DNA of 32,000 nt from Burkholderiaceae bacterium (GCA_965234775.1 OZ248566.1); one strand, 5' to 3'; positions 11,062-29,705 are shown, numbered from the stretch's first letter. A program made the numbers and translations. The notes: a model not told the origin generated them from the letters alone.

Positions 11062-11136
11062 GCGTGGTTAGCTCAGTGGTAGAGCATCGCCTTCACACGG
11101 CGGGGGTCGGGGGTTCGAAACCCTCACCACGCACCA
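11062..11136 (+). tRNA. tRNA-Val (anticodon CAC), CCA encoded
   Basis: Folded by hand. Acceptor stem GCGTGGT/ACCACGC, D arm GCTC-AGTGGTA-GAGC, anticodon stem TCGCC/GGCGG with loop TTCACAC, T arm GGGGG-TTCGAAA-CCCTC, discriminator A plus CCA. Confidence 0.9.
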
Positions 11137-11253
11137 AAAATTTCCCTTTATCTTCAACAACTTAAGCACTTTTATTGGCGCTTTACTTTAAGAAATTTGT
11201 AGTATACCGGTCCCATACTACATTTCATAGATTTTTCAATGTGTTTTCATAGA

Positions 11254-11428
11254 TTTCTCGATCAGAAATCTATCTAATTTTTATCTCGCGTGTGTGTGGT
11301 GAGCTGCCCTTTGCGTGCAAGCCCTACAAGCGTTGATCTCATGTGCCAGCTACTTTGCCCAGCCCTGGTGTGGAAAAGTGTGCTGTAGGGCTTTTTAAAC
11401 GCCCGCGTGCAGGGCTAGAAAGTTGTGA
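11254..11428 (+). repeat. copy A of a ~175-bp imperfect direct repeat (partner at 28733-28906)
   Basis: Blocks shared with copy B, in the same order and at the same spacing: TTTTCATAGATTTC; AGCCCTACAAGCG(T/C)TGATC; TGCCAGC 23 nt after the IR arm; GCTGTAGGGC; CTAGA(A/C)AGTTGT. The internal IR is GCCCTACA (11321-11328) / TGTAGGGC (11384-11391) with a 55-nt spacer. Confidence 0.8.
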
Positions 11429-11431
11429 GGC

Positions 11432-11635
11432 TCAAGCGGGCTTGCAGTCAGCGCACATGAACATGCTTTGATTGAGCACGCGTCTGAAGCTGCCCAGTGC
11501 ACGCGGCTTGTGCAATCCGCATTTGTAGCAACTCATGCTGGCGCCAGTACCAGAGGCTGCAAATGGACTGCCACCTTCTTTGGATTTGTACCTGAGGCCA
11601 TCGCCAGAAATTTTTGTGGTTTCGTCTTTGCTCAT
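11432..11635 (-). CDS. small zinc-ribbon protein (CxxC-N21-CxxC), function unknown
   Basis: 67-aa ORF directly downstream of, and co-oriented with, the integrase (36-bp gap). It has CYKCG...CADC, but no family was recognised. Coding status is supported only by position and the Cys pattern. Confidence 0.5.
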   Translation of the reverse strand: MSKDETTKISGDGLRYKSKEGGSPFAASGTGASMSCYKCGLHKPRALGSFRRVLNQSMFMCADCKPA

Positions 11636-11671
11636 GCAGGCATTCTATTGAGCAAGCCTAGATTGCGGCGA

Positions 11672-13018
11672 TCATTCCCAAGGCCTGGGTCTGCGCTTGC
11701 TCTGCAGTTCACCCACGTTCATCTCACCCTGCAAGGGAGCAGCGTAAAAGCGGTCAATCATCTCAGGACTGGTGCGAGCATTTCGTGCCAGGGTCAAGGT
11801 GTCCACCGTTCTGCCAAACATCAGCCGGAACATGATGCTGCTGTGGCGCAGACTGTAAAGACTGCGTGGCTCACCCACATTGCCAATCTTCAGTTGTGTG
11901 ATGTCAAGTATTGAGTCAAATTGTTTGGCCAGCAACTTCATGGCATGGTCTCTGGTGGATGCCAGGGGCATGAACACAAAGTCATCTGGCTGAACGGCTC
12001 TGCCAAATTCAAGCTCTTGGCGACGGCAAATGCGCTCATACACCTTCACAGCCCAGGGCATGGTGGTAATTGGATAGCTGTGGCCCTTGCTGGGGGGTAG
12101 GGTCAGCCGCAAATAGGTCCATTCGCGTCTGACAATCTCCACATGCTTGTGCTGCATGTTGCGAACATCAGTGGGGCGGATGTAGCTGTTGACCATGAAC
12201 ACAATGAGATCGGCCAAGTCTCGCGTGATGTCATAGCTTTTGATCAAACGGTCACCTGGGCTGTGCTTTTCCCCTGAGAGGCAGAAGTAATTGCCCTCAC
12301 CATCACTTTTCACACGCCACTCAATGCGCTTGCCAGCAAACTTTTTGGCGGCTCTGAACAGCTGCTTGTACTCGCCCACATTGAACCAGCCCCGAGGCTT
12401 GTCTTCCACGCCCACCTTGGGAAACTCCGGCAGGTGCTGCAAAAAGCTGTGCCTGGCACCATGTTGAAGCACCTTGCGCACCAGCCCCATGTAGGCGCTC
12501 AGAGTTGAAATGCTCAACTTGGGTTCAAGACTGGACATTTTCTGCAGGTACTCATCCAACAGCTTGTAGTTGATGCTCAACACATCCGTCTGACCAAAGA
12601 ACGGCAGGATGTGCTTGTCCATCCTCAGCTGCAGGTTCATGTAACTGGTCTTGGACAGCTGCATGCGATTGAGCTTGGCCAGTTCAGTGTCCATCAGCAT
12701 CTTGGCCACCTTGGCAAAAGACACCACCTCTGCTGCGTTCACATCAATGGGCAAGCCCTCAAACGTTCCGCCATGCATGCGCAGGTTGATGTCATCGTAA
12801 AAGCGCTTGGCAGCTTCCAGTGCATCACGCTTGTTTTCTGTCTTGGTGGTGCGCTTGAAGATGTGCTTTTCAGCGTAGTAGCGTACCCACCAGTAGCTTG
12901 AGGCTGGGATTTTGAAGATCACCAACTTTCTGGGGTAGCCAGGAATCCGTGTGATGGTGTCCTGTAGCGGGACAGATCTGTGGCGCTGATGGGAGTCGGG
13001 TTCTAGTGCTCGGGCCAT
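11672..13018 (-). CDS. tyrosine-type site-specific integrase
   Basis: 448 aa from the ATG at 13018. The C-terminal catalytic region has SLYSLRHSSIMFRL (HxxR-type box) and IDRFYAAP (candidate catalytic Tyr). The gene sits next to the tRNA gene, in the orientation typical of island integrases. Confidence 0.88.
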   Translation of the reverse strand: MARALEPDSHQRHRSVPLQDTITRIPGYPRKLVIFKIPASSYWWVRYYAEKHIFKRTTKTENKRDALEAAKRFYDDINLRMHGGTFEGLPIDVNAAEVVSFAKVAKMLMDTELAKLNRMQLSKTSYMNLQLRMDKHILPFFGQTDVLSINYKLLDEYLQKMSSLEPKLSISTLSAYMGLVRKVLQHGARHSFLQHLPEFPKVGVEDKPRGWFNVGEYKQLFRAAKKFAGKRIEWRVKSDGEGNYFCLSGEKHSPGDRLIKSYDITRDLADLIVFMVNSYIRPTDVRNMQHKHVEIVRREWTYLRLTLPPSKGHSYPITTMPWAVKVYERICRRQELEFGRAVQPDDFVFMPLASTRDHAMKLLAKQFDSILDITQLKIGNVGEPRSLYSLRHSSIMFRLMFGRTVDTLTLARNARTSPEMIDRFYAAPLQGEMNVGELQSKRRPRPWE

Positions 13019-13127
13019 GGCTTTCACTCGCAATGTTCTACATAGTGTGTTTTCTGAGAAGCAGGGCAGTCAACCGAAAGCTGGCTGGACTGTGGCTTTT
13101 AGACGATCTGCACAATCGATCGAATGG

Positions 13128-13784
13128 TCAGGCAGTTGCTGTTTGCTCTGCAGGTTCATCTGCACTGCTCTGGGAGGTTTGACCTGTCCAATAGTGCTTG
13201 TCATGCCAATCACGGAGATCTGATAAGGTTTTATCGATCGCTTGTGTGCCATATCTTTCTGTCATTGCTTTTAAACAGTCAACATCAAAGTTTTCGATCA
13301 CAGTGTCTTGAATGCCACTTTCCAGGAGTTCTTCTTTGTGTTTTTCAACTTTTTCGGGCCATCTTTTGACTTCATCAAACAAGTGCCTGGCATGGTGATA
13401 GTTGTGCAATCGCTTGCTTAATTTTGTAAAGTCGTTGTTCTCTACGTAGAAAGATCCACTGCATATTTTTGAGTACTTCAAAATAAAAAAACTGTTGGGT
13501 TGAATTCTTTCTGCAGTGAAGTAAAAGTGTGAAATCGGAATCGTTGCCCAATAGCCAGGACCTTCCTCGCCAGTGTCTGGACTTAAACAATATTTCAATC
13601 TACCAAGAGAACGGATGTAATTTCTGTGATGACCGTGTGCTTTGTAGCAACTGAAATCCTCAGTACCCAGCAGACGAACGATCTCTTTGCGCTTGGGCAG
13701 CTCGCCTTCGTCCTTCACATGCCAAAGCAAGATTGAGCCTTTGGTAATTTTTTCGAAAAGATTTGACATGACATTCGCTTCCAT
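13128..13784 (-). CDS. hypothetical protein (AT-rich orphan)
   Basis: 218-aa ORF, or 213 aa if it starts at MSNLFEK (13769). It is markedly more AT-rich by eye than its neighbours. No motif was recognised. Confidence 0.55.
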   Translation of the reverse strand: MEANVMSNLFEKITKGSILLWHVKDEGELPKRKEIVRLLGTEDFSCYKAHGHHRNYIRSLGRLKYCLSPDTGEEGPGYWATIPISHFYFTAERIQPNSFFILKYSKICSGSFYVENNDFTKLSKRLHNYHHARHLFDEVKRWPEKVEKHKEELLESGIQDTVIENFDVDCLKAMTERYGTQAIDKTLSDLRDWHDKHYWTGQTSQSSADEPAEQTATA

Positions 13785-13789
13785 AAATT

Positions 13790-13811
13790 CCCTAAACCCG
13801 AAGGTTTAGGG
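13790..13811 (-). promoter_or_regulatory. intercistronic stem-loop (9-bp stem, UUCG loop on the mRNA strand) overlapping the RBS of ORF 13784
   Basis: The minus-strand RNA reads CCCUAAACC-UUCG-GGUUUAGGG, then AAUUU, then AUG (13784). It is preceded by a C5UC6 tract. Confidence 0.5.
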
Positions 13812-13830
13812 GGGAGGGGGATTGCTTGGT

Positions 13831-14865
13831 TTAAGCGGGTTGATTAATCGTCACGCCGCCAATGGTTTGGGTCTGGGGCGCATTGAGCATGGCCTCAGGT
13901 TGCACTGCACCGTTCACTGCAGGCATGCCACTGGGTTGATAGCCCTTGTCGCCAGGCTTCATGCCCCAGCCAGAGGTGATGCCCAGTTTTTCGCGCAAGA
14001 CGTCAAGCTTTTGTTGCATGGCTTCCAGGTCATCTGGCATGCTGGCCTCGGCCACCAGGTTCAAGATCTGCGACTCCATGGATTCGTTCAGCTTGAAGAA
14101 CCTGACCACGCGGCGCTCTTGGCCAATGGGGTTCACGCAAACCGCAAACTCAAAGCTGCCTTGCTTTTTGCCCTCAACCACGGTGTTGAGCACAAACTGG
14201 TCATCCACATGCACCACGGTTTGGCTTGACTTGGCATTGGCCAAAAGAATTTTGCGCAGCATCTGCGTCTTGGCTTCCTTGTGATCCTTGACGTTTTTGG
14301 CTGCTTCGGCCTCGTCCCTGGTGGCTGTGATCTTGCCAATGCCGCCACGGTCTTTGATGTAGTTGGGCAGCTCTTGGGCCGTGAGGTTTTCATCATGCGC
14401 CACCTGTAGTACTTTGGAGTACGAGTAGGCGGTCTGACGATCCGTTGGCAGGATGAAGCGCAGCACCGTGGTGATCCAAGGCGTGTTGGCCTGGGTCTTG
14501 ATCTCATGCTCTTCCTCCAAGCGCTCACGCATGCGCTGAAGGATGTGATCCCGCAGGGGTGACTCGTTGATCTGCAGGGCATAACTGTAGATGGCACCCA
14601 AGAGGGCATAAAGCTCCTTGGTACCCCTCACAACGTATGTTTCCACATACTGGTCGTTCATCTTGGACAGGTTCTGGGCCTGCCCCAAAACCATGTCCAC
14701 CTGAGCGTCGTTGGCGCTCTTGTCACTGGGTCGGCGGCTATCGGAACCGCCAAGGGCGCGGTTCATAAGTAGGCCAAAAGCAAACTCATCCACAGCTGGA
14801 ACCGCTGGGGCAGGGCTGGGTGGAACCCCATGAAAGGCAATGGTTTGGACGGACTCTTGATTCAT
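13831..14865 (-). CDS. hypothetical protein
   Basis: 344 aa from the ATG at 14865 (MNQESVQT), which has a strong AGGAG 6 nt upstream. The N-terminus is Pro/Ala-rich, followed by a helical-looking core. No family was recognised. Confidence 0.65.
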   Translation of the reverse strand: MNQESVQTIAFHGVPPSPAPAVPAVDEFAFGLLMNRALGGSDSRRPSDKSANDAQVDMVLGQAQNLSKMNDQYVETYVVRGTKELYALLGAIYSYALQINESPLRDHILQRMRERLEEEHEIKTQANTPWITTVLRFILPTDRQTAYSYSKVLQVAHDENLTAQELPNYIKDRGGIGKITATRDEAEAAKNVKDHKEAKTQMLRKILLANAKSSQTVVHVDDQFVLNTVVEGKKQGSFEFAVCVNPIGQERRVVRFFKLNESMESQILNLVAEASMPDDLEAMQQKLDVLREKLGITSGWGMKPGDKGYQPSGMPAVNGAVQPEAMLNAPQTQTIGGVTINQPA

Positions 14866-14979
14866 AAAAACTCCTGTTGAAAAATAACTTTCGGGACCGT
14901 CGGCCAGGATGGACACGACAAGCACAGGTTAGTTTTCTGGCGTCGGAGGTTTTTCACTTTTTCGAGGGGGTACGAAAAA

Positions 14980-15720
14980 ATGAAAGTTCAAAGGCTGGAA
15001 TGGTGTAGGCAAGAAAAGCTGGTTTCCTTGATCGCTGGTGGGCTACTGAGGTCTGAGGTGACCGCGCCCTTTATCCACGGCACCTACCTGGAGCTTTGGT
15101 GGCGATGCCTTAAGTGTTCTAAAGAATTCACCCAAAGCGGCCGTACCGGCATATTCACCTCTGCCGGCGCATACAAGACCTTCTGCATGTTTGGCTCAAT
15201 AGAAGACATGACGTTTCATGACTGGTGGCTGAGCAAGGGCCATGAGTTTTTTAGTCAAAGCATTACGACCTTGCAAGTCACGCTGTATGTGAAACGCAAG
15301 AACATCAATGCATTTGCAATTACCGTAGATGCATTTCAAGATGTATCAAGCCAGTTGGCCGGAAAAGAGTTTGGCTTTTGGCACGACCAGATCTGCCTGC
15401 TGAATGCAAAACAGGGGCTGCTGTCTGAGGCACCATTGTCCTGGCCAATTTTTCGCAGTCGAATTGGCTTGGAAGCGATCTCTCAGCTGTTGAGCATCAT
15501 GGAAACTCATGACCAAATCGTTCGCAATGCGCCAAAAACATGTCTATGGCAGATAGGCGAACAGCTAAAACTCAACCCTAAGGCCATGCCTAAACATGAT
15601 GACTTCCCTGCTGATGCGGCAGACAAGCACAAGGCCATGGGTCAGACTGTGAGCAACTACCTGAGAAAAGGGAATCGCCTTGTCAAAAATGCATGCAATG
15701 GCATATTCCCTAAATGCTGA
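14980..15720 (+). CDS. hypothetical protein
   Basis: 246-aa ORF with GAGGGGG 9 nt upstream of the ATG. It is divergent from 13831-14865 across a 114-bp intergenic region. No family was recognised. Confidence 0.55.
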   Translation: MKVQRLEWCRQEKLVSLIAGGLLRSEVTAPFIHGTYLELWWRCLKCSKEFTQSGRTGIFTSAGAYKTFCMFGSIEDMTFHDWWLSKGHEFFSQSITTLQVTLYVKRKNINAFAITVDAFQDVSSQLAGKEFGFWHDQICLLNAKQGLLSEAPLSWPIFRSRIGLEAISQLLSIMETHDQIVRNAPKTCLWQIGEQLKLNPKAMPKHDDFPADAADKHKAMGQTVSNYLRKGNRLVKNACNGIFPKC

Positions 15721-15851
15721 TCAAAATTAATTTTTTCTCCCGTCAACTACAACGTGGGGCATTCAAAAAGGTTATGGGCTAAAGCCTGGATTCATGCGTG
15801 GAGCTCGCAAACCATTTAAGTATGAAGGATTCCCAATCGCTCAAAGCATTG

Positions 15852-18800
15852 TTAATCTGCTCTTTCTGAGATCACCACCAACGTGCGTTGTCCGCCAAAG
15901 GTCAATGCCACTTGCAGTGGAAAAGCGCCATCCGGCACGGCGCTGGCATCAAACCGCAAGGTTTTGACATCAAATTTCAGCCATTCAGGAAGTGCAGAAC
16001 CACTCGGTAAGTTTGCGCGAATATCGGAACTTTCTGCGGCTGCGGTACGAACCGATTCAGGCAGATCAAAGCTAAATCCTGCGCCCACGGTAGACGTTCC
16101 CTTTGGCAAAGAAACCGCAAACATCATCGACAAACCGGTTGAACTGGGTGCATTGCGTTGCTCAACGCTGATGCCTGATGCCTGCGAGCTTGCAGCTGAG
16201 CTGTTGGCAGAACTGCCTGAGTCATTCGTCACCAAAGTTTGGGTTGTGGCACTCACCATCAACGGTTGAGGTATGTTGGCATTGGACAGACTTGTGCCCA
16301 TCACAGGCGGTGTTGGGTTATTGGCCAATAATTTAGAGGCGACAACTTGCGCCGCGGTGACATTGGGTGAGACAGAGACATCGCGTGTGATGTTGGTGCC
16401 CGTTTTGTTGACAACCCCAGTGAAGTTGTTGGTGCCGTCTAGGGTGATGCTGCCGCCAGCGGTGAGGTTGGTGGGGCCGGTGGCGACAGTGAGTGTGCTG
16501 CTGGTGCCCTGGGTGACGTTGCCGGTGGTGGCAGTCAGGTCCAAGGTGCTGGCGTTGACCACACCGTTCACAGCGAGGTTGGTGGCAGCAGTTGCGTTGA
16601 GGTTGCCAGCCGTGGTCACGGTGCCCAGTGTGAGCGCATTCGCATCGACGATGGTCACGTTGCTGCCATTCAGGCTAACGGCACCCACAAAGTCATTGCC
16701 CGCATTGCCCAAGTTGATTGCGGCGGGTTGTCCGCCCTGCGTGGCTGTGAAACTGCTGGTCGATTGCGCTGTGATCACGCTGCCGCTGGATTGGCTGATG
16801 GCGCCATCGGTGCTGGTCACGCTCAATGTGCCTGTGCTGGTCAGGTTGCCCAATTGCACGCCAGCCGTGGTGTCTGTGATGCTGGTGTTTCCACCCACAG
16901 AAACACTGCCCGAAGCGCCTTGGCTGAAGTTTTGGGTGACTGATAGGTCACCTCCAAGGGTCATGGCACCGCCAGTTTGCACCAACGAGGCTGCCGTCAT
17001 GGCGCCTGTGCCCGAAAAGCTGCCACCGCTTTGGTTGAAGCTGTCCGAGGTGGTTGAGCCTGTATTGGTCAGAGTGCCGCCACTTTGCGTGAGGCCGCTC
17101 AAAACCATGCCGCCCGTGCCCACATTCAAGGTGCCCGCGCTTTGCGACAAATTGCTGCCCGTGCCCGTCAACCCGTCAATGTTGACCGCACCGCTTTGCG
17201 CAGGAGCAACCACTGTGCTGCCAAAGCTGGCCGTCACGCCAGAGGGAATGACCACGTTGGCCACGTTGGACAAATCAGGCACCGCACCGCCCGCCCAGTT
17301 GGCGGGATCAAACCAATTGCCCGTTGTGCCGCCCACCCAAGTGACAGAGTTCAGGCGTGTGATGCTGCTTTGCGTGTTGCTGGCGTAAGTGATGGCGTAA
17401 TTGCCGCCGCTGTTGCCGTCAGCCACCACCGCTGCGCTTGGCGTCAGCGTTTTGCCGGTGCCCACATTCTTATTGTCAAAGTTAAGGCTGACGCCACTCA
17501 CCGTATCGCCTGCAACACCCAGTGCTGTGCTCAGTGCCGTCAAGTCTGCTGCGGTCACTGAGGAGGTGGTTTGCCCGTCGTAGACCTTGGTGCCCGTCGG
17601 TGCAGTCAGTGTCACGGCTTTGGGCGTGATGGTGCCTGAGCCACTGATGGACGCATTGGTGATGGTGTAGTTGCCAGCATCGTTGCCCGTCAATGCCAAA
17701 TTGCTGAGGGTGTAGGTGGTCGAACCTGCATTGCGCGAGGCAAATTGCCCATTTCCGCCAGCGCTGACTGCGTCGGTCAGGGCACCCGACGTCACCACGC
17801 CGGTCATGCCAATCGAGACCCCAGTCGCTGCGGTGGTGCCGTCATAAGGTTTGGTGGCGTTATTGACATTGGGGGTCAATGCTTTTGGTGTGACAGACAA
17901 GTCACCCACGACGGTCAAGCGACTGAAGTTGGGGTTGGCGCTGGGCGTGATGGCAAGCCCAGAGCCTTCCAACTGGTAAGCCCCTGCCTTTGTCTGTAAG
18001 GTCGTGCTGAGCGAAGCATTGACAGGGGTGAGATTGAATGTGGCCGATGTGCCTGCGCCGTCGTTCACGGACACGGCATTGCCGTTCACGTTCACAGTGC
18101 CTACGTTGACCGGTGCAGCAGGGTTGCCCCCCGCAGGCATGTACTGAGCGCTGCTCACGGTGTAGGTGGGCGCAGACCCGTAGGTGGCACTGGCGCTTTG
18201 CAAGCGAACCAAGAGTTGCTCAGCCGGCACGATGGTGTAACTGCCCTTTGCGTAACTGATTTGGTAATTTGGCGCAACAGCGCCAGAAGGTACCAGTGCA
18301 TTGGCATAGGTGCCTGCAGACTCGGTGCCACTGCTGGCCAACACACCGGTTGCAGCGCTGCCGTTGGTGATGTTCAAGGTGTTGGTGCGGTCTACGCTCA
18401 CCGTCGGTGTGCTGGTCAGAACGCCAGCGGTCGACGCCGTTTCGCCCACCACAAAGGGTGAATAACTGAATGTGAAGCCAGGGTCTGCGGTGGTCACAAA
18501 CTTGGCATCGTTGTTGGCGTAAACCGTTAAAGAAGCTGGGGTGATTTGTTTTGTAGCCGCTGCAGGCTGCGTGAGCGAGTAATTGCCTGACTGCGCACCC
18601 GACAAGCTCAGACCCGTAAAAGTCACTGTGCTGGCCGTGGCGACGTCTTTGGTGTTGAAGTTGCCAAGGGCTGTGCCAGTCAGAGCAACGGTGTCGCCCA
18701 AGTAGGCCTTGCCGTCACTGCTGGTGCCCGTGCCTGTGGCAATGGCGGTTTGCAAGACCGCCGTGCCGCTCACAACGGCTGTGGTGGTGCCGTCGTAAAC

Positions 18801-21800
18801 CTTGTCAGCGGTGGTCACGCCCGACACCGTCAATGCCTTGGCCGTGATGCGTGGCGTTGTGGCGTTGGCGTGCTGGGTCAGGCTGTAGTTGTCTGCGCCT
18901 GTGCCAGTCAGACCCAGACCTGAGAAAGCCACCGTGTTGGCTGTGATCACGTCTTTGGTGTTGAAGTTGCCAAGGGCTGTGCCAGTCAGGCTCACGGAAT
19001 CAACCGCATAAGCCTTGCCGTCGCTGCTGGTGCCCGCGCCTGCCGCAATGGCAGTTTGCAGCACAGCGGTGCCGTTGACGGCGGCTGTGGTGGTGGCGTC
19101 GTACACCTTGTTGGCCGATGACAGCCCGCTGACGGTCAGCGCCTTGGCCGTGATGCGCGCCGTGTTATCGGAAGGCTGCGTGAGAGCGTAATTGCCTGAT
19201 TGCGCACCCGTCAAACTCAGGCCTGTGAAAGCCACCGTGTTGGCCGTGAGCACGTCTTTGGTGTTGAAGTTGCCCACAGCTGTGCCCGTCAAGCTCACCG
19301 TGTCACCCGTGAAGGGTTTGCCATCACTGCTGGTGCCTGTTGCCACAGCCGCTTGCAATACTGCGGTGCCGCTCACCACGGCCGTGGTGGTGCCGTTGTA
19401 AACCTTGTTGGCGCTTGAGAGCCCAGAAGCCGTCAGCGCCTTGCGGTTGACCGTCAGCGTATTGGCGGAGACGCTGTAGCCCAATCCAGTCAAGTTGCTG
19501 GTGATGGTGTAAGGCGTGGCATTGGCATTGAGACGGCCCGAGGAATAGGCCGCGCTGGTGATGGTTTGAGAGAACGTATCGCCATTCAACAACCCAGTGG
19601 GCGTGGTGGACAACGCAAAACTGTCGCCATAAGTGATGACTTGGTTGAGGTTGTCCAGGGTGATGGCTGTGGGCTGTTCGCGATAAATGCCATACACACC
19701 CGAGCTAAGGGCGGTCCAGCTGCCAGTGGCAAAGTTGGTCGATTCATCGGCGTTGTACCTAAAGCGCCCAGTGCCTGCCGTCAGGCCGCTCAAGCTGGTC
19801 AAGCCCGTACTGCCTGTCACGCTGCCAGTCATCAGGCTGATCCTTCCTCCAGTACCGACGCTCAGCGTGGGCGTTCCAGAGATCAGCAAGTTGCCCCCGG
19901 AGGCAGTTCCTGGGGCGGTGCTCTTACCCGCGTTGAGCAAGATGGCACTGCTGGTCGTGCTGGTGGTGTTGATGTTGTCAGCCAAGGTGAGGTCGCCCGT
20001 CAAGGTAGAGACACTGACGGCGCCGGTGGCTCCAATGCCAGAGGTGGCACCCACTGTGCCGATGGTGAGCGCATTGCTGTCAATGTAGGTTAGGCTGCCC
20101 ACGCCGCTGGCCGCCAAGGTGCCAACGTTGTTGCTGGCGTGGTCAAGCGTGACGTTTCCGCCTAAGAGGAACAGGTCACTGGCGACAACGAAGCCGCTGG
20201 TGCCATCGGTGACAGCCTTGCCGGTGCCGCCTTTGAGGGTGATTTGGCTGTTGGTGGCCGTGATCGGCGCACTGATCGTGATGGCCCCACCGTTAATGGA
20301 GATCGGACCTGTTGCGGTGATGGCTGTGCCCACGGTCACATCGGCGGTGTTGGCGCTCTTGCCCAGGCGCACGCTAGAGGGGGAGCCTGAAATCGATGGA
20401 AATGTCTGCGCCGCTGAGAAGGTGGACCCTGCTGATTCAAAAACGATGTTGCCACCCGTGTTGAGTTTCAGAGCATTGGGGTTGAAAGTTTTGTTGGCCT
20501 GTATCGTGATGTCAGACGTGCTGGTGGTCACAGATGATCCACTCACAGCCCCGATATTCAAAGTTTCACTTCTTAGAGAGGTGATTGAGTTCTGCGTACC
20601 TAACGAGCTTCCATCCGGTGTCAGGTCAACGATACTGATGCGCCCAGACTGCGACAGCAGACTGGCCCCGGCCCAGTTTTGCAGACCATCTGAATTGGCG
20701 GTTGTTCTACGGTACAGGTTCAGGGTGAGTGCACCGGAGTCGGTGACGATGGTGTTACCGCCACTGAAATAAATACCCATTGCGTTACCGGTGGTGGTCA
20801 GATTGGATGCATTTCCTGTCACGGTGATGTTGCCGCTGCCACTGGTCCGGACAATGGAGTTGTCGCCAAAAAGAACGGCGACGTCATCTTGAGTTCCGCT
20901 AGCCCCCCCAGCTGCAAAAGAAGAACTTAGATTTATGTTGCCGCCAGAGGCATTGAAGCTGGCGTTGTTGCCAATTAGCAGAGCATAGTCTGTGCTGCTC
21001 GTTTGGGGTGAATTTGTGACGCTGTAAGTGATCGGTGACCCTTGGGTGGTCACGCTGAAAGACCCCTGTACGATGGCTGTGCCGGAAAGGCTGATACCCG
21101 TGCTGTTGGTCGCGGTGCTGGATAAGTTGTTGTTCACCGAAATGATGCGGCCAGCGTTCAGAGTAATCCCACCACCAATGCTCAAGGCATAGTAAACATT
21201 GATGTCTCTGTGCGCGGTCAGCGTCAGAGAATTAGCGGCCGCTTGGGTGACTGCGGCATTCACTCTGATGTCGCCATTGCCTCCCGGTGACGCATCCGTG
21301 GCAATGGCAACGCTGGTGGTGAGTAAGTTGCCGGCCAGGGTTGTCGCGCCAATGCCACTCGTGGTTTGCCCGCCTGAACCGGCGCTGATGGTGAAGTCAA
21401 TCGGGTCCAGCAGCCATTGGCCAGCGTTGCCTTTTGGCGCCAACGTGTTCACCCCGGCTGTTTCAGCCACGCGCAGTGTGTGCCCTGAGGTTTCGACACG
21501 CCCACCTTGGCCGCTGTTGGGGCCGCCTTGTGCATGAATTTGCCCTGCAAAATCGGTTTCACTGCCTTCTGCTTTGACATCACTCCACAGCACCACCATG
21601 CCGCCATCGCCATTGTGCGTGGCGCTGGCATCGATGGTGGCACCGCTGGCCATGTTCACTGTGGTGGCCTGTTGGTTAGGCTGCTCTGTGACTTGCAGCA
21701 GCGGGTCAGCGCTGCCTTGCCAGTTGCCCCCCACCAGCACCGTGCCGCCGCCGGCAGGCCCCGTGGCGCTGATGCGGCTGCTGCTTTGCAGCTCAATGCT

Positions 21801-22799: not shown

Positions 22800-22862
22800 G
22801 GTGCGGGGCTCTGTGGGTGCTTCAGATGAAAAAAGCGTGTTGGGTCTTGGATCGTGGGTGGA

Positions 22863-24554
22863 TCAAAAAGACAAGCCTGCGGTGAACCAGATGCGGTTGA
22901 TCAGAAGCGTGCCGTCGCCATCGGTACCGGTGGCTGTGGGCTTGGGGTTGCTGCCTTCGCGCTGAGACCACGTGAGCTTGGCGTTGAGACCCAGGGGGCC
23001 TTGCCAAGCCGCGCTCAGGCCATACCCGCGCAAACTCGATGGCGTGGATGCGTCAGCGGCTGTGGTTGGCAGCGCGGTCACCCAAGCTTGGTCTATAAAA
23101 CCGCTCAGCAACCACGCAGCATGCAAGCGCCAGCGCCATTCGCCCGTCAGCAGTTGGCCGCGCTCACCACCCAACTCGCTGCTGGGGTAGGCGCGCACGA
23201 TGGTGGCACCGCCGATGTAAAACTTCTCAGACGAGTCCAGCAACTGCGTGGCGTATTGGCCTTGGAGGTTGAGGAGCAGAGAGTGGTCCTTGGTCAATGA
23301 CTGTTGTCGGCTCAGGGCGTAGTTGAATTTGATGTAGTCGCGGCCCAGGGTGTCGATCTGGGTGTGGGCCTTGACACGGGCGAGTTGACCTTGCACCACT
23401 TGCAATGAGGCACTGTTGGCACCGCCGCCACCCAGGTCGTCAAAAACGTTGCCAGAAAAACCCAACTTCAGGCTGTTGGTCTCGTAATCGGCGTAGCTGT
23501 TGGTGGCGCTGGTTTTGTTGATGCTGTCGTTGTAGAAACGTTTGTTATCCAGACCCCCAGAAAAATACAAATTGCGCATGCGCTGCCGAACGACTGGAAA
23601 GCTCCAGTCCAAGCCTATGCTGTCGGAGCTGCCTTGGACGTTCAAGCTCACCAAGCTGCTGGGGCCGTCGATGACTTTGTAGTTCATCGTGCTGCCGTTG
23701 AACCCAAAGCGCAAGCCGTTGTAGCCCACAGGGACGGTCAGACCCAATCGGACGTAGGCACTGCCTTGGGTGCGCAATGCGGTCAAGTTGATCAATTCGC
23801 CGTGGTCGCCAGGGCTGTTGATGTTCAGGTTGAGCATGACGCGGTTGCTGCCGGTTGAGCGCGCACCGGTGTTGTCCAGGGTCACTTCGCCGTAGACAAA
23901 AGCCTCGTCGCTGTTTTGAATCGCCAAGCCCGTTTCGCCTTCGGCCTGGCCTGGAACCAAGGTGCCTGCGACGCTGATGCCGGGCAGGTCGTCGGCCAAC
24001 AGCAGGGCACGGTCGAGGGCCAGTGTGTTCAAAGGCTCGCCCGTTTTTTGTTGCTCCTCGAAAAAGGCCTCAATGTCCGAGGAAAGAACGCGCTTGGAAG
24101 GTTCGCCTTCCAGGCGCAGGCCAGCAAACCGTGCTTCCACCACTTGCAGGGTGATGGTGCCTTCGCTGATGTCTTGCTCTGGCAAATAAACCCGCGCCAA
24201 CCATCCGGACTCACGGTAGGCAGCGGCGACCGCATCGGCGGCGCGCTGTATCCCGGCAAAGTCGAGTTGCAGGCCCACAAACGCCTGCAGGACGGTTGCC
24301 AGTTGTTCGCTGCTGAGCAAGTTGTTGCTTGCAAAGCGGAAGGATTTGACCATGACGGTCATGCCCGATGTGGGCTGGATTTGGGGGGGCAGCGGTGCGC
24401 TTTGGGGGCGCGCTGCGGGCAATGGCTGTGGGCGTTGTTGCTCGATTTGCTGACGCAAGCTACCGGCGTCTGGGGGCGTTTGGGCCCATCCCGAAAAGCT
24501 CAGCCCCAATGCGACAGGCAAAGACCAATAAGTGGGAAGAGGTCTATTGGGCAT
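22863..24554 (-). CDS. TpsB outer-membrane transporter (ShlB/FhaC/HecB family, POTRA plus beta-barrel)
   Basis: 563 aa from the ATG at 24554, with a signal peptide ending SGWAQ. A POTRA-like region (VKSFRF.SN.LLS.EQL) is followed by a C-terminal barrel ending in an aromatic residue (AGLSF). It lies immediately upstream of tpsA (63-bp gap). Confidence 0.9.
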   Translation of the reverse strand: MPNRPLPTYWSLPVALGLSFSGWAQTPPDAGSLRQQIEQQRPQPLPAARPQSAPLPPQIQPTSGMTVMVKSFRFASNNLLSSEQLATVLQAFVGLQLDFAGIQRAADAVAAAYRESGWLARVYLPEQDISEGTITLQVVEARFAGLRLEGEPSKRVLSSDIEAFFEEQQKTGEPLNTLALDRALLLADDLPGISVAGTLVPGQAEGETGLAIQNSDEAFVYGEVTLDNTGARSTGSNRVMLNLNINSPGDHGELINLTALRTQGSAYVRLGLTVPVGYNGLRFGFNGSTMNYKVIDGPSSLVSLNVQGSSDSIGLDWSFPVVRQRMRNLYFSGGLDNKRFYNDSINKTSATNSYADYETNSLKLGFSGNVFDDLGGGGANSASLQVVQGQLARVKAHTQIDTLGRDYIKFNYALSRQQSLTKDHSLLLNLQGQYATQLLDSSEKFYIGGATIVRAYPSSELGGERGQLLTGEWRWRLHAAWLLSGFIDQAWVTALPTTAADASTPSSLRGYGLSAAWQGPLGLNAKLTWSQREGSNPKPTATGTDGDGTLLINRIWFTAGLSF

Positions 24555-24608
24555 TTTGTGGGTCAAGAAAAAACATCGCGCGAGGTTAAAACGCGAAAAT
24601 CTTTCTTT

Positions 24609-24625
24609 GCCTACAAAAACCTACA
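24609..24625 (-). promoter_or_regulatory. tandem 10-bp-phased direct repeat GCCTACA-AAAA-CCTACA upstream of tpsB (candidate response-regulator box)
   Basis: On the gene strand it reads TGTAGG-TTTT-TGTAGGC, 55 nt upstream of the tpsB ATG. The same bipartite pattern occurs at 27355-27371. An AT-rich hexamer (TTTAAC) lies 18 nt downstream. Confidence 0.55.
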
Positions 24626-24664
24626 AAATTGACATGTCTTAATGGGTGAGGTCAGCAGGTACTG

Positions 24665-25381
24665 CTAAACCACTTGCACTGAGATGCACAGCTGGTAGCC
24701 GTGCCCCCGGATGGCTTCGATGCAGTTGCTGCCCGCTCCGGCGTCTACCAGTTTCTTGCGCAGGCGCACCATGCGCACTTCCAGGCTGGCTTTGGGGTAA
24801 GTTTCCAGGTTCAGGCCGAGGGTTTCGGCGATTTGCCAGTAGGCGATGCGCTGTCCTGGGGCACGTGAAAAGGCGGTCAAGATGGAAGTTTCAGAAGCGC
24901 TCAGGACAATTTCAGACTGACCAGGCTTGGCAATACGCATGTGCTGCTGATGCAGGGTAAAGCTTTGCTGGTTCTGGTTTTGCAGCAGGGTGTCAACCCT
25001 TTGTCGACGCCGACCAAGGGCGCCAACCGCGGCACAGAGTTCGGGCACTTCGATGGGTTTGCTGAGGTACATGTCGGCACCTCGCGCGTAGCTTTCGAGC
25101 TTGTCGCTCAGGCCCGAGCGGGCTGTTACCACGATCAAACCCGCGAGCGGGTAGGCGGTGCGTACGCGCTCAGTTAGGCTCAGGCCATCTTCGCCGGGCA
25201 GGTTCAGGTCGATCAAAAAAATGTCAACGTGTTGGCCTTGGGCCACGTCTTCGAGCTCTTCGGCACAAGACAGTGCAACGACTTGATGGCCTGATTCCTC
25301 CAGCGCTTGCTGGAGCATGTCGCGCAAAATGTCGTGATCTTCAACAATCACCAGGTTCAGGCGTGGTGCAGGGGTATCCAC
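24665..25381 (-). CDS. OmpR/PhoB-family response regulator (receiver plus winged-helix)
   Basis: 238 aa. The receiver has LVIVEDHD and DIFLIDLNLPGEDG. The C-terminal winged helix has MVRLRKKL...IEAIRGHGYQL. The start is GTG at 25381, overlapping the kinase 3' end by 25 nt. Confidence 0.9.
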   Translation of the reverse strand: MDTPAPRLNLVIVEDHDILRDMLQQALEESGHQVVALSCAEELEDVAQGQHVDIFLIDLNLPGEDGLSLTERVRTAYPLAGLIVVTARSGLSDKLESYARGADMYLSKPIEVPELCAAVGALGRRRQRVDTLLQNQNQQSFTLHQQHMRIAKPGQSEIVLSASETSILTAFSRAPGQRIAYWQIAETLGLNLETYPKASLEVRMVRLRKKLVDAGAGSNCIEAIRGHGYQLCISVQVV

Positions 25382-27282
25382 AGAACAAACTCCACATGTT
25401 GATAGCTGGGCGCGTAAACCAAAGTGCCCCCCAGGCTTTGCGCCAGCTCTCGCGATAGGAAAAGCCCGAGGCCTGTGCCCGATTCGCGTTGTGCGGCATT
25501 GGCGCGGTAATACTTGTTGAACAGTTGCTCAGTGTCAGGCCAGCCAGCCAGCCCCGGTGTGTTGCTCATGCGCAGTTCCAAGCCCGGCAGATCATCCTGG
25601 GTTTTGGGCTTCAAGGTGACGGTAACGGGGGTGAGGGGGTCGCTGTAATGGGCCGCATTGATAAGCAAATTGGTCAGAACGATTTGCAGCAGTTGTGGGT
25701 CTGTGTGTGGCCGAGGCAAGTTTAGGTCTGCGGCGAGATCGAAACGCCCCTTAAGCTTTGAGATGGCCTTTGCTTGTTGACGTAAGAGCCCCACCACATT
25801 GACTGGTTGGCGGTGTTGCTTCAGTCGAAGTTCTCCGATTTGGTCAGACTGCACGCAGCGCTCGATGATGGCTTTCATGTCTTGCACAGCATGGCTGGCA
25901 TGTGCCAGGTTTTCTTCCCGGTTTGTCTTGTTACCCAGCGCTAACGACACGATAGACAGCGGTGTCTTGAGCTCGTGCATCAGCATGTGTAAAAACTGAG
26001 ATTGCTCTTGACGCTGTCGCTGCTCAAGGGCCAGGACTTGCTTGGTCCTGTCTAGGTTCATGGCCATCATGGTTTTCTCGTTTTGTAGCTCATGCGATTT
26101 TTGGGCCATGTTGTATACACGCAATTGCATCAGCAAGAACATCACCAGTCCATCGAGCAAGACATGCATCAGGTTACCGGCCAGCAAGAAGCGGTTGATT
26201 GGCAGCCACCCCTGCCGGATGGCGGCGGGGATGATGTTGATGGTCGCGAAAATGGAAAAATAAGCCAACAATAACAAGTAGGACAAGCTTTGTTTTTGCC
26301 GGGAGGGTTGAGCGAACAACAAGGTAAACCACATCAAGCCCAAGCAAACAATCACCATGACATTGGTGCTTAACAACATGAATCGGGTCATGTCAAAGAA
26401 CTGGAGAAAGGGCAGTACGCAGACCAGCGCCACAGCGGCAAGTGTTGCGCGCAGAAAGCCGCGCTGCAGGCCATAGTCTTCAAACAAGACGGTATAGAAC
26501 CATACGCCGCTAGCAAGAGTCCAAATCCGGATAAAGTATCCTAGGCAGAGGCGGAAGTTCAGGGGAATGAGATCGCTCAGCAAAAGCCCACTGAAACCCA
26601 CCATACTGAAAGCCCACAGCGTGGCCATCCATTGTTTAAAGGCGTATACCCCCATCACTCGCTCTCGACTCATCCACCATTGCATCGTCGACCACAGGGC
26701 AAAGACGATGGACACAGACTGCAGAAAGACCACGAGTCTTTCCATGTTGTAATTTTTGACTTGTGCTTTGCGCAAAGGCCAGACATCGGTCATGACCAGC
26801 CGGGCACTTGGGGTGTCGATGCGCAAGTACAGGTTGCGCTCTTCGGGTAAGGGTGGAATCTGAAATGAAAAATTGATCGAATCCAAGGCATCCTCACTGC
26901 GCGGTCTAGCATAACCACCGTGCTGGACCCGGGTTGAGGCTGAGTCATACAAAGTCAGTTGATCGAGGAAAAACGGTTCAACACCGACGATCCATGCCTC
27001 TTTTTCTTCGGGTAAGGCTGCACGCAAGGTGTAGCGGATCCAGATGGGTTCTTCCCCAAATCCCCAATTCATCTTGCCATCAAAAGATGTCCAGCTTTCG
27101 ACGGCTTGGACCTCTTGAAGCGTGGCACGACCGCTGGAGTCCATGTGCCAGGCCATGGATTGGACGAGCGGAGGTGCTTTGCTTCCGTCTGGGGATGGTT
27201 GGCAAGCTGCCAGCCCGAATGTGAGCAGGAGCGTCAGGAACAATCCAGACCAACGGAACCAGCGGGGAGCATTGACGAGCAT
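25357..27282 (-). CDS. sensor histidine kinase with 7TMR-DISM-type N-terminal sensor and seven-TM region
   Basis: 641 aa from the ATG at 27282 (TTG at 27288 is possible). It has a lipobox-like signal (LTFGLAAC) and a periplasmic domain, followed by about 7 hydrophobic helices. The H-box is MHELKTPLS and the ATPase N/G boxes are LLINAAHYS and GTGLGL. Confidence 0.85.
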   Translation of the reverse strand: MLVNAPRWFRWSGLFLTLLLTFGLAACQPSPDGSKAPPLVQSMAWHMDSSGRATLQEVQAVESWTSFDGKMNWGFGEEPIWIRYTLRAALPEEKEAWIVGVEPFFLDQLTLYDSASTRVQHGGYARPRSEDALDSINFSFQIPPLPEERNLYLRIDTPSARLVMTDVWPLRKAQVKNYNMERLVVFLQSVSIVFALWSTMQWWMSRERVMGVYAFKQWMATLWAFSMVGFSGLLLSDLIPLNFRLCLGYFIRIWTLASGVWFYTVLFEDYGLQRGFLRATLAAVALVCVLPFLQFFDMTRFMLLSTNVMVIVCLGLMWFTLLFAQPSRQKQSLSYLLLLAYFSIFATINIIPAAIRQGWLPINRFLLAGNLMHVLLDGLVMFLLMQLRVYNMAQKSHELQNEKTMMAMNLDRTKQVLALEQRQRQEQSQFLHMLMHELKTPLSIVSLALGNKTNREENLAHASHAVQDMKAIIERCVQSDQIGELRLKQHRQPVNVVGLLRQQAKAISKLKGRFDLAADLNLPRPHTDPQLLQIVLTNLLINAAHYSDPLTPVTVTLKPKTQDDLPGLELRMSNTPGLAGWPDTEQLFNKYYRANAAQRESGTGLGLFLSRELAQSLGGTLVYAPSYQHVEFVLWIPLHHA

Positions 27283-27354
27283 GGTCAAGGAACAGGTGGG
27301 TATGACAATGAAAGGCTTGAAAGCTGGTAGTTTTTAACAGAAAAGCAAGTTGAA

Positions 27355-27371
27355 GCCTACATTTCCCTACA
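27355..27371 (-). promoter_or_regulatory. tandem 10-bp-phased direct repeat GCCTACA-TTTC-CCTACA upstream of the kinase gene (candidate autoregulatory box)
   Basis: On the gene strand it reads TGTAGG-GAAA-TGTAGGC, 67-73 nt upstream of the kinase start. An AT-rich hexamer (TAAAAA) lies 18 nt downstream. Confidence 0.55.
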
Positions 27372-27500
27372 TCGCTGAAGCCATCACTTGTTCCAAGCTA
27401 CTGGGTTGATCGAAACCCGTCCTTATCTGTCACACCCGGCTAGACCGGGTAACCATCCCCGCCGAAGTCACCCAAGCGTTTAAAGGTTGCGACGACCTTG

Positions 27501-27676
27501 CCAAAAAGCAAAGGGAATGCTTGGATTACATCGTTGTGCATGAACTGGTGCATTTGCTGGAGCCGGCACACAACGAGCATTTCATCAAACTGATGGATCA
27601 ACATATGCCCAAGTGGAAGTCACATAGGCAATTGTTGAACAGCTTGCCGGTCAGGCATGAAAACTGGGAGTACTAA
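27501..27676 (+). pseudogene. 5'-truncated remnant of a DUF45/YgjP-type zinc metallopeptidase (gene class usually found beside type I R-M hsdR)
   Basis: The frame translates to DDLAKKQRECLDYIVVHELVHLLEPAHNEHFIKLMDQHMPKWKSHRQLLNSLPVRHENWEY*. This includes the HExxH motif and the conserved C-terminal part of the family. About 170 N-terminal codons and any start codon are missing, and an in-frame stop lies at 27417. Confidence 0.65.
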
Positions 27677-27961
27677 GAACCTTAAACTATATGCTTATGA
27701 AATTAACTAATATATGGATATGGCAATATTTTAAAAATTCCGTATTCGCAAGTGCAATGTCACAATGGTTGAATGGATCGCTAAATGATCTATCGAAAAT
27801 TTTTGACGAAATCGCGTATCCTGATGTGTCTCATCGCAAATGTGGTTTGCACAAATTAAACTAATAAATTATTTTTTACTACTTTCAAAATGCAAATTTA
27901 TTTCGATTGAAGCTTCGATGAAAAATAATTAAATTTGATATCTTTAGTTATAAGTCAGGAA

Positions 27962-28534
27962 TCAAACCAGCTCGACAGCTGCCTTCAATTGACTGGGGCT
28001 GCTGTAAAGATAGGCAGCGGTGGTGCTGATTGAGCGGTGCCCAGCAAGCGTTTTTAAAATATGTATCGCAGTGCCTTTGTTGGCCAAGTTTGTTAGGAAC
28101 GTTCTGCGCCCACTGTGACTGCTGGCACCCTCAACTCCAGCGCCTTCGTACATGAGTGCAAAGGCCTGAGCCAAGCTGTTTGCGCCGAATCCTGACTTGA
28201 TGCTTTTTTGGCTGGCAAAGAATGGGTAGTTGCGATCCACGCACCGAGCCTGTGCTGCATACGCTGCCAATTCCTCGCGCAGTCGGATGTTGACGAAAAC
28301 AGTCCTTGGGTGTCGGCCCTTGGTCATGTCGGGCAGCAAGCGGATTTCTTCCTTGACTGTGCCGTCCTGCTTGATCACATCGCTCCAGCGCAGGCAAGCA
28401 ACTTCACCGATTCTTAAACCTGCCAGGTGAGTGAGCAGCATCATTGCTCTGTTGCGTGGCGCGAAGCGGCGTGTGCGGATGTGGTCCAGTACCCGTGTCA
28501 GTTCTTCTTTGGTGAGTGTTTTTGCCTGTGCCAT
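27962..28534 (-). CDS. short tyrosine recombinase (catalytic domain only, 190 aa)
   Basis: Strong RBS (AAAGGAGAActtgaATG). Catalytic residues can be traced: LAGLRIGEV (Arg I), SSHSGRRT (HxxR), LAGHRSISTT (His II) and AAYLY (Tyr). There is no N-terminal core-binding or arm-binding domain. Confidence 0.85.
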   Translation of the reverse strand: MAQAKTLTKEELTRVLDHIRTRRFAPRNRAMMLLTHLAGLRIGEVACLRWSDVIKQDGTVKEEIRLLPDMTKGRHPRTVFVNIRLREELAAYAAQARCVDRNYPFFASQKSIKSGFGANSLAQAFALMYEGAGVEGASSHSGRRTFLTNLANKGTAIHILKTLAGHRSISTTAAYLYSSPSQLKAAVELV

Positions 28535-28732
28535 TCAAGTTCTCCTTTAATCATGTGTTTGCGTTAATTGCATTGTGTTTTCACATATTTATCTGGGCAA
28601 CCTGAGTCCTGCCAGAGTGGCGGGTTACCGAGCTAGAGAGAGGGCGAAATGAACTGGTTGTGGATAACTTTTTCATTGAAAAAATCCTCAACAATTTCAA
28701 AGCTCAAGAGGCGAAATCATTAGAAAGCTGAA

Positions 28733-28906
28733 TTTTCATAGATTTCCGCATCGCTTTCGCACTCTTTTGGTGCCCAAATCACCACTGCATCAAATCAGCC
28801 CTACAAGCGCTGATCGGCGCTGCCAGCATCCCAAGTATTCGGTCAGGTAGATCGATGCGCTGTAGGGCGTTTTAGCGCTGGGGTTTTGTGACTAGACAGT
28901 TGTTGA
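28733..28906 (+). repeat. copy B of the ~175-bp imperfect direct repeat (partner at 11254-11428)
   Basis: See copy A. The internal IR is GCCCTACA (28798-28805) / TGTAGGGC (28861-28868), and the spacer is again exactly 55 nt. It is flanked by the 10-mer AGATTTCCGC at 28740-28749 and 28931-28940. Confidence 0.8.
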
Positions 28907-29114
28907 TTGCAGCTTTAGGGCAAATCTGTGAGATTTCCGCCACGGGCATGTACACAGCCCGAATGGGTCCTGCAGCTTTCGATTTCACAGCTACGGAAAT
29001 TCGGGGTCAAGTACTTGAATTTCTGCCCAGATGATTTTCATTCGGTACCCCGCCAAGTTATCGGGACACCACGTATCGGTTGCCCATTTGAGCATGTGAA
29101 ACAAAACTGTGGTC

Positions 29115-29519: not shown

Positions 29520-29705
29520 TCTGTGTTGGCCCCGACTGAATGCTGTGAAATCCCCACTGCGCCCATAGCAACCAACGCGCGTCCTGAGCGTTCATGGCTC
29601 GAACTTCAGTTTTGATCACTTGGCTGCGGCCGTGGACCTGTGCGCGAACAGATGCTTGATAGGTGTGCATCAAGTACTTATCACTTGCGTGAAGGTAGTG
29701 CGCAT

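Follow-up and report, generated by a model that had tools for sequence, protein, structure and literature searches.

The window analysed here, a stretch of 32,000 nucleotides from a Burkholderiaceae bacterium (GCA_965234775.1, OZ248566.1), carries two diverged, non-coding copies of a sequence module, copy A (~11150-11428) and copy B (~28659-28906), which bracket a 17.5-kb segment of a tRNA-Val island. These repeats are real and functional-looking, and they belong to a widespread, previously undescribed module that can be found upstream of the gene for a small tyrosine recombinase, rec190. Core genes, namely uvrB, an isc-hsc-fdx cluster and an RNase T-like exonuclease gene, lie to the left of position 11062. 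Between copies A and B are, in order, a Zn-ribbon open reading frame (ORF), the integrase gene int453, three unknown ORFs, the TpsA/TpsB genes of a two-partner secretion (TPS) module, a histidine kinase gene, a response regulator gene and rec190, in agreement with the gene content proposed in the initial annotation (integrase, unknown genes, TPS, two-component system and short recombinase). Downstream of copy B are DUF6876, a zeta-like toxin pair and DUF6641. The features are given below; the short motifs were read directly in the sequence, and L numbers denote individual loci used for comparison.

11062 to 11136, plus strand: tRNA-Val(cac), called by ARAGORN and Rfam; its last 46 nt are the attachment (att) core at the locus, as taken from a direct repeat in L134
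11150 to 11428, plus strand: copy A, the A-type, tRNA-Val-proximal module variant, delimited by its alignment to copy B, kept beside tRNA-Val in six loci and ending where homology to L134 ends (11428)
11199 to 11221, no strand assigned: inverted repeat GTAGTAT..ATACTAC, found in A-type copies only and kept in L013, L029, L116 and L117
11223 to 11234, plus strand: M box TTTCATAGATTT, the first of two direct copies 22 nt apart
11244 to 11257, plus strand: M box TTTTCATAGATTTC of copy A, the first shared block of the initial annotation
11264 to 11273, minus strand: partial inverted M box AGAAATCTAT, palindromic with the preceding M box
11321 to 11332, plus strand: left G-box arm GCCCTACAAGCG of the 71-bp unit, copy A
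11344 (copy A) and 28821 (copy B): TGCCAGC
11382 to 11396, plus strand: right G-box arm GCTGTAGGGC (11382-11391) and T-run, copy A
11415 to 11426, plus strand: last shared block (CTAGAMAGTTGT in both copies), reading CTAGAAAGTTGT in copy A, at the right edge of A next to the L134 breakpoint (11428)
11672 to 13033, minus strand: int453, divergent 453-aa tyrosine integrase of the tRNA-Val island (PHROG_1 integrase, E = 7e-14; weak Pfam matches to SAM-like and catalytic domains; homologues beside tRNA-Val)
27962 to 28534, minus strand: rec190, 190-aa tyrosine recombinase consisting of the catalytic domain only (Pfam Phage_integrase, E = 2e-21)
28578 to 28591, plus strand: M' box TTTTCACATATTTA, 44-57 nt upstream of the rec190 start codon, in the best conserved block of the intergenic region
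28684 to 28700, plus strand: M''-like box, family consensus TTCAATGATTTCAA, from a palindrome scan and the sequence
28713 to 28746, no strand assigned: M-box palindrome GAAATCATTAGAAA-GCTGAA-TTTTCATAGATTTC, 10/14 complementary, from the palindrome scan; site of the linkage break and candidate core or crossover site
28733 to 28746, plus strand: M box TTTTCATAGATTTC of copy B
28798 to 28809, plus strand: left G-box arm GCCCTACAAGCG, copy B
28859 to 28873, plus strand: right G-box arm GCTGTAGGGC (28859-28868) and T-run, copy B
28892 to 28903, plus strand: last shared block, reading CTAGACAGTTGT in copy B
29109 to 29519, plus strand: DUF6876 gene, the conserved partner across the module (Pfam E = 1e-30; synteny in most loci of the family)

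The similarity between the two copies is far above chance. In a local alignment, 11320-11426 and 28797-28903 share 66% identity over 107 nt (z = 9-12 over shuffles), and blastn inside the window gives E = 2e-5; the formal alignment that had been proposed as a check thus finds significant similarity beyond the short blocks. The ordered blocks listed for both copies all occur at their places, with exactly 55 nt between GCCCTACA and TGTAGGGC in each. The repeat unit of ~175 bp proposed at first has to be extended, as weaker similarity reaches leftwards to ~11150 in A, 14 nt past tRNA-Val, and to ~28684 in B; copy A ends at 11428, and the module measures ~250-290 bp. Similarly, TGCCAGC does lie 23 nt from the left arm, but the distance counts from the start of the arm and not from its end. 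Only A and B were recovered in a profile search of the window. Within the module, the inverted G boxes enclose a 71-bp unit with a stem of 8 bp, a bulged A and 4 bp (GCGY/RYGC), and the centres of the arms are 63 bp apart, corresponding to six helical turns.

A scan for the two arms separated by 35-65 nt, across one genome per species, returned 27 genome loci against ~2 expected by chance (our own estimate from pattern and database size), ~22 of which are exactly 71 nt long. All 27 belong to freshwater Burkholderiales (Limnohabitans, Polynucleobacter, Oxalobacteraceae and Comamonadaceae), as does every one of the >100 public loci now assigned to the family. The relatives point to a Limnohabitans-like freshwater betaproteobacterium as the probable source of the window. 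In most arm-pattern loci, rec190 on the minus strand is followed after ~260 nt by the element on the plus strand and, 200-1100 nt further, by DUF6876 on the plus strand. The same layout can be found in 80 metagenome loci picked by rec190 alone, with no selection on the arms, where the element is present in essentially all loci whose contig extends far enough. As the rec190-element-DUF6876 layout holds in both genome and metagenome loci, copy B is taken as the canonical copy. The intergenic region between rec190 and the downstream gene is densely conserved throughout, and on eight metagenome contigs rec190, copy B and DUF6876 are 98.6-100% identical to the window, with other DNA outside both stop codons. 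Considering that the arms are kept in >100 loci that do not carry the two-component cargo, the suggested link between the arms and the TGTAGG box of the local regulator is unlikely.

The ends of these contigs deserve separate mention. Homology of the near-identical contigs to the window stops just past the DUF6876 stop codon (29521), several of them end ~30 nt past the rec190 stop (27931), and in L002 a LysR-DctPQM cluster takes the place of the toxin-antitoxin pair. Many of the metagenome contigs L036-L115 end ~75-300 nt upstream of the rec190 start codon, and members of the rec190 and DUF6876 families are mostly found on contigs <2 kb; the module appears to break metagenome assemblies.

Regarding rec190 itself, inspection identifies R41, K72, H140, R143, H166 and Y175/177 as candidate catalytic residues, so that the R-K-HxxR-H-Y set is kept. 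Its nearest matches are catalytic domains of the Xer type (XerA structure 4a8e, E = 1e-12); the alignments with XerA and XerD cover their catalytic halves alone, a core-binding domain being absent from rec190. Matches to tyrosine-type (Fim-type) DNA invertase profiles are full-length but weak (E = 2e-7), and those to integron-integrase profiles weak and partial (4e-8). A homologue search gave 3974 relatives or clusters at E <= 1e-15; since the best 120 listed are 190-203 aa long, rec190 is considered full length and not truncated. Relatives of the size of rec190 with 36-43% identity occur on 516 plasmids, one of them beside RepB on an Acinetobacter plasmid, and the module DNA found no match in the plasmid collection.

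The canonical module holds four M-box copies, namely M', M'', an inverted M and M. In B-type copies, the inverted M and M together form a lox/dif-like palindrome with 14-bp arms and a 6-bp spacer of variable sequence (GAAATCTATGAAAA-N6-TTTTCATAGATTTC). The arms are complementary at 14/14 positions in L043 and L067 and at 13/14 in L010, L026 and L031, against at most 11 in shuffled controls. Linkage was measured on 73 aligned intergenic regions as the correlation of pairwise distances between adjacent 50-nt windows. Values lie at 0.6-0.85 across the intergenic region and go down to 0.24-0.37 at the palindrome (bootstrap interval 0.22-0.47 vs 0.69-0.89 elsewhere), and the dip persists with 30-, 50- and 80-nt windows and in metagenome-only loci. 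Individual pairs illustrate the break: L061 and L069, as well as L054 and L073, are identical as far as the spacer and the following TTTT and unrelated past there, while L023 shares no similarity with L011 and L009 on its left side and is ~90% identical to them from the right arm on. This population signature, in which flanks switch at one place, marks the M palindrome as a putative recombination hotspot. The M boxes drift along with rec190 divergence (L121).

Close to the palindrome, TGTGGATAA at 28659-28667 on the plus strand resembles a DnaA box; it is ~99% conserved in the family and is the complement of the DnaA-box consensus TTATCCACA. In one flank type, the 71-bp unit is immediately preceded on its left by two more copies in direct orientation (TTGGATAAC...CTGTGGATAAC), which could be DnaA boxes or iterons. 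An exact match to the TTTCATAGATTT 12-mer is also present at 1349-1360, in the 5' coding region of a core gene; ~0.004 exact matches are expected by chance, and this one is probably coincidental.

Direct module pairs bracket cargo in four further loci (L073, L032, L013 and L009). In L073 the cargo is a four-gene operon encoding a TctC-like binding protein and amidohydrolase-like, SDR-like dehydrogenase and acyl-CoA-ligase-like products, named from a reading of the translations and not from Pfam. The pair in L032 encloses one peptidase-like gene, and a third partial module copy is present there too, whereas L013 has tRNA-Val, A, a truncated DUF6876 and then B. Tandem partial modules can be found in L069 and L054, and two modules lie head to head in L083. 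Because paired copies come from different flank lineages, they are not recent duplications. The initial annotation had proposed recombination or att-type sites, or tandem accretion of related elements, as one role of the repeats. With a hotspot signature in the module and direct copies around cargo elsewhere, the recombination part of that proposal gains ground; the crossover signature is situated in the TTTTCATAGATTTC palindrome, whereas the 8-bp inverted repeat around the 55-nt spacer shows none, and, as detailed below, the tRNA-Val integrase does not use A and B as its att sites.

Taken as a whole, the reading that we favour, tentatively and at somewhat less than an even chance, is that rec190 has its cis-acting DNA site region in this module, of which A and B are diverged copies, and that the M palindrome is where exchange takes place. 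We infer rec190 as the acting protein and the palindrome as the exact exchange point, as well as the chemistry; the role given to the G-box pair is a guess. In such a scheme, rec190 would bind the M boxes (TTTTCATAGATTTC), four of which are present in a canonical copy and one of which overlaps the rec190 promoter region, and strands would be exchanged within the lox/dif-like palindrome of 14-bp arms and 6-bp spacer. The 71-bp unit, which has inverted G boxes (GCCCTACAAGCG / GCTGTAGGGC) at its borders and T-tracts after it and is situated 50-75 bp to one side, would act as an accessory, protein-bound architectural element. DNA circles bearing the module would be inserted at module copies or deleted between them, and the direct A/B pair would allow the loss or gain of the 17.5-kb segment with int453, TPS, the two-component system and rec190. 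Copy A, where the M boxes are arranged otherwise, may be a weak or degenerate partner. The role of spaced protein-binding sites, also listed in the initial annotation, is consistent with the data and forms part of this scheme: the six-turn spacing, together with arms that stay constant despite rec190 divergence, fits two in-phase binding sites for a binder that is not rec190. It can further be hypothesized, with more doubt, that the module represents an undescribed cargo-exchange system of freshwater Burkholderiales islands, in which a rec190-type recombinase swaps cassettes, from one gene to 17 kb, with A and B as one boundary pair. The site would then be a composite of ~250 bp, made of a lox-like M palindrome for exchange and invariant G boxes six turns apart for a second factor.

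Several observations weigh against a rec190 site region with exchange at the palindrome. Copy A has the order M-N10-M-N7-inverted M, unlike the B-type palindrome, and exchange between A and B may be inefficient owing to this arrangement. There is no crossover hotspot at the 71-bp unit, across which the correlation is 0.55 and not below that of the flanks, and the dip at the palindrome could stem partly from flank types having been aligned that are not homologous. Even with rec190 identity down to 44% (L025, a locus from the arm-based search), the G-box arms show no change, which argues that the G boxes may be bound by a factor other than rec190. Eight loci that lack the right G-box arm still keep rec190, and those among them with a long enough contig (L086, L101 and L113) keep DUF6876 too. 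As the island has its own integrase, rec190 may have a role other than recombination.

Copy A represents a subtype whose layout after tRNA-Val is also seen in L029, L013, L116, L117, L134 and L135. In A-type copies, a hairpin resembling a terminator is followed by the GTAGTAT..ATACTAC repeat and then by a direct pair of M boxes at a distance of 22 nt, usually with a partial inverted M box next; after these comes the 71-bp unit, whose interior is CCAGCTACTCAGCCCAGC. The locus L134 is assigned to the same species as the window because its exonuclease is identical. There, a 0.9-kb islet with one 127-aa gene (L134:1856-3149, corresponding to window 11091-11136) is inserted in tRNA-Val. On either side of it the 3' end of the tRNA (CTTCACACGG...CACCA) recurs as a 46-nt direct repeat, and the T-loop of the rebuilt tRNA is slightly altered. 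This islet is a clear case of tandem accretion at tRNA-Val, and copy A remains at the old tRNA end, with homology to the window stopping at 11428. For int453 homologues of 56% identity, the distance to tRNA-Val is 40 nt, and this interval contains no A element. From the layouts of L134 and of these homologues, it follows that A and B are not att sites of the integrase, that copy A is dispensable for integration at tRNA-Val and that it is not strictly tied to int453. The possibility that A and B are att sites of the tRNA-Val integrase was rejected accordingly, the true core being the last 46 nt of the tRNA, of which A and B hold no sequence. No second copy of the tRNA-Val 3' end (attR) is present within the window, and the integrase-defined island therefore extends past position 32000.

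Two further observations concern tRNA-proximal DNA. In L117 (~330-1000, after tRNA-Val), an insertion of ~850 nt splits the M boxes from the 71-bp unit, and its product is highly repetitive and Gly/Pro-rich, with GPGG-type repeats. In about ten loci (L038, L127-L129, L092, L107, L069, L061, L071 and L036), a fragment resembling a tRNA 3' end (GTTTGAATCCCTTTTACCCCGCCA) lies right after the rec190 stop codon in the same orientation, with no full tRNA near; it may be an old att remnant, and in that case rec190 would once have been at the end of an element.

Regarding other explanations, the main rival, which we consider unlikely, is that the module is an origin of transfer (oriT) and rec190 a tyrosine-recombinase-like (MOB_M-type) relaxase that would nick within it. 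DUF6876 and the toxin-antitoxin genes would then form the leading region, the inverted repeats would be hairpins or relaxosome-binding sites, and transfer starting at one direct copy and ending at the other would mobilise the 17.5-kb segment or the remaining island alone. TcpM, MobK and MpsA likewise have no core-binding domain and act at a repeat-rich oriT upstream of their own gene (PMC9299015; PMC8152469), and such relaxases are reported to occur widely in islands of the chromosome, with an integrase close to 96% of them (bioRxiv 10.64898/2026.01.13.699239); the present island likewise has both int453 and rec190. On an Acetobacter plasmid, DUF6876 is found beside ParB-N, BrnT, a zincin-like metallopeptidase and a TOPRIM primase gene, a neighbourhood that we read as leading-region-like, and a breakpoint at one fixed position would also fit a nic site. 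However, rec190 gives no BLASTP alignment with TcpM of pCW3, and the contexts examined contained no genes for transfer, whether for a type IV secretion system (T4SS), a coupling protein or anything else; where the context is minimal, as in L127, metabolic genes are the only neighbours. Perfect 14-6-14 palindromes are found more typically in recombination cores, and foreign cassettes between module copies are not predicted by oriT-oriT resolution. More improbable still is a purely regulatory region, in which rec190 and the downstream gene would have their operators and divergent promoters, copied along with the genes themselves, the M and G boxes being operators of island regulators and the repeats mattering for recombination only as homology. 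The location of the module between divergent genes, with the M' box so near the rec190 start codon, plus-strand gene starts 190-430 nt past the 71-bp unit in most loci and dense conservation of the whole intergenic region, is what such a function would produce. Against it, copy A and the B-type copy of L013 precede opposite-strand genes, and regulation would leave both the cassette-like arrays and the sharp drop in linkage at the palindrome to be explained in another way.

The least probable of these explanations is an RNA one, close to the structured small RNA or terminator of the initial annotation, for which little support was obtained. Here the 71-nt unit would be transcribed on the plus strand as a 75-95-nt small RNA (sRNA) or as a 5' leader or attenuator, the stem with its U-run and a second hairpin being alternative terminators. 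A conserved T-run follows the stem on the plus strand in most copies, a second hairpin with its own T-run shares the 3' arm, and C-to-T changes in the GCGC extension lead to G:U pairs on that strand; moreover, SGI1 depends on an sRNA whose gene lies in the interval from the recombinase-like relaxase gene to oriT (PMC9299015). Yet Rfam 15, searched with gathering and E-value thresholds over the whole window and both copies, yielded only the tRNA and otherwise chance-level matches. Single-sequence fold z-scores are modest (-1.5 to -3) and alike on both strands. RNAalifold, run on 27 sequences and then on 70 chosen regardless of the arms, recovered the closing stem only, with no interior fold (consensus -7.7 kcal/mol for the 70 sequences). 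Among these 70, one compensatory change (L044, G-C) stands against many uncompensated mismatches, including a clade of at least nine sequences in which GCTATAGGGC leaves an uncompensated C:A and others with two mismatches. Substitutions, transitions included, show no strand preference, the interior of the 71-bp unit is unrelated in L025 and in A-type copies, variants without the right arm persist, and the pairs of the second hairpin past the first T-run are kept in only 57-86% of sequences. Promoter scans gave nothing convincing. The RNA explanation is thus weak and is kept alive by the conserved T-runs. Other candidates were set aside on more direct grounds. A miniature transposon with terminal inverted repeats was rejected, there being only two copies in the window, both in the same extended context, and so was a tRNA-like element, for which ARAGORN was negative and the GCGC pairing beside the stem is unlike a cloverleaf.

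Returning to a rec190 site region, its closest counterparts are the lox, FRT and dif sites (Cre-loxP, F ResD-rfsF and the Tn4430 TnpI site). These also have inverted arms of ~13-14 bp around a spacer of 6-8 bp, lie just upstream of the recombinase gene and have accessory sites nearby, in which the binding motif recurs in direct or inverted orientation; a direct pair would lead to deletion, and a circle with a site to insertion. Arms and spacer of this kind are found in the family (14/14 and 13/14), while copy B of the window has 10/14 and copy A is arranged otherwise. The catalytic residues are present in rec190 by inspection, in line with its Pfam match, and flank exchange at the spacer is indicated by the indirect population signature. 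TnpI and Cre are proteins of 284-343 aa, unlike rec190 with its 190 aa and no N-terminal core-binding domain. The 71-bp G-box unit and the DnaA-box-like motif have no counterpart in these sites.

Tyrosine-recombinase-like relaxases are reportedly often annotated as integrases (bioRxiv 10.64898/2026.01.13.699239), and the known MOB_M members are unrelated to one another (PMC8152469). Those of pCW3 (TcpM), pIGRK (MobK) and SGI1 (MpsA-MpsB) resemble rec190 in having the catalytic domain only and in occurring in islands with a true integrase too. Their cis site is a few hundred bp of repeat-rich intergenic DNA upstream of the gene, which the module would fit in position and repeat content, although no feature in it marks a nic site. 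In contrast, rec190 has no detectable similarity to TcpM, no MpsB-like partner and no helper or transfer genes were found, and neither the 14-6-14 palindrome nor cassette-like arrays are described for MOB_M systems. The pdif modules of Acinetobacter plasmids, where cargo bounded by short Xer-type sites is shuffled between replicons, are reminiscent of the arrays described here, and rec190 is most similar to Xer catalytic domains. While pdif modules rely on host XerC/XerD and 28-bp sites in alternating orientation, here the recombinase is element-borne and the repeated unit is ~250 bp long, direct and composite.

Integron platforms share with the module a recombinase gene divergent from the adjacent site, followed by same-strand cargo and more sites downstream (L073 and L032). 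They differ in the size of the integrase (315-337 positions in NCBIfam integron-integrase profiles vs ~190 aa), module cargo can be a multi-gene operon, and nothing points to a folded single-strand substrate. An attI/attC identity is not supported, with no GTTRRRY/RYYYAAC boxes in the module sequence and only a weak integron-profile match for rec190. FimB/FimE switches have a recombinase of similar size and short inverted repeats beside the gene, but only 47-55 bp separate the module arms; a Fim-type invertible switch is not supported, as ~90 elements all have the same interior orientation (CTGATC beside the left arm, CCAGC at +26).

The rec190 family is abundant (3974 clusters, mostly on short contigs that break around the module), and this points to a main source of plastic genomes, and of fragmented assemblies, among freshwater bacteria of the Limnohabitans and Polynucleobacter types. 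Were the module to be a recombination site or an oriT, this would account for the swapping of metabolic operons and of toxin-antitoxin, secretion and defence genes among islands. The M palindrome would be a concrete sequence testable in vitro, and a minimal recombinase without core-binding domain would be added, with its site, to a small known set. A cargo-exchange system of this kind would be functionally parallel to integrons or pdif modules, with different parts.

With regard to the neighbouring genes, the true start of DUF6876 is probably 29139 and not the called start. Its structure model is of moderate quality (pLDDT 67), a fold search matched only one protein of unknown function, and neither DUF6876 nor DUF6641 is mentioned in the literature searched. 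Scans with Pfam, NCBIfam, PHROG and PADLOC gave nothing informative for the unknown island ORFs, and exact-protein look-ups of int453 and the Zn-ribbon ORF returned no records. The latter, a 67-aa CxxC...CxxC ORF at 11432-11635 on the minus strand between copy A and int453, has a weak likeness to the Cas12f/TnpB-like zinc-ribbon (TNB) domain (PADLOC E = 0.002, Pfam E = 0.09), and other genes occupy its place in L116 and L117. The TpsA gene (2315 aa) contains three diverged tandem repeats of ~306 nt (18551-19443, 73-81% identity). Between the two-component system and rec190, a short ORF at 27521-27676 contains a motif of the HExxH type (HELVHLLEPAHN) and resembles a leftover C-terminal part of a metallopeptidase gene. 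Finally, a 58-aa ORF at 29497-29673 on the minus strand is convergent with DUF6876, in a stretch that begins right past the DUF6876 stop codon; its DNA is conserved in at least 15 related loci, and it may be a real small gene.

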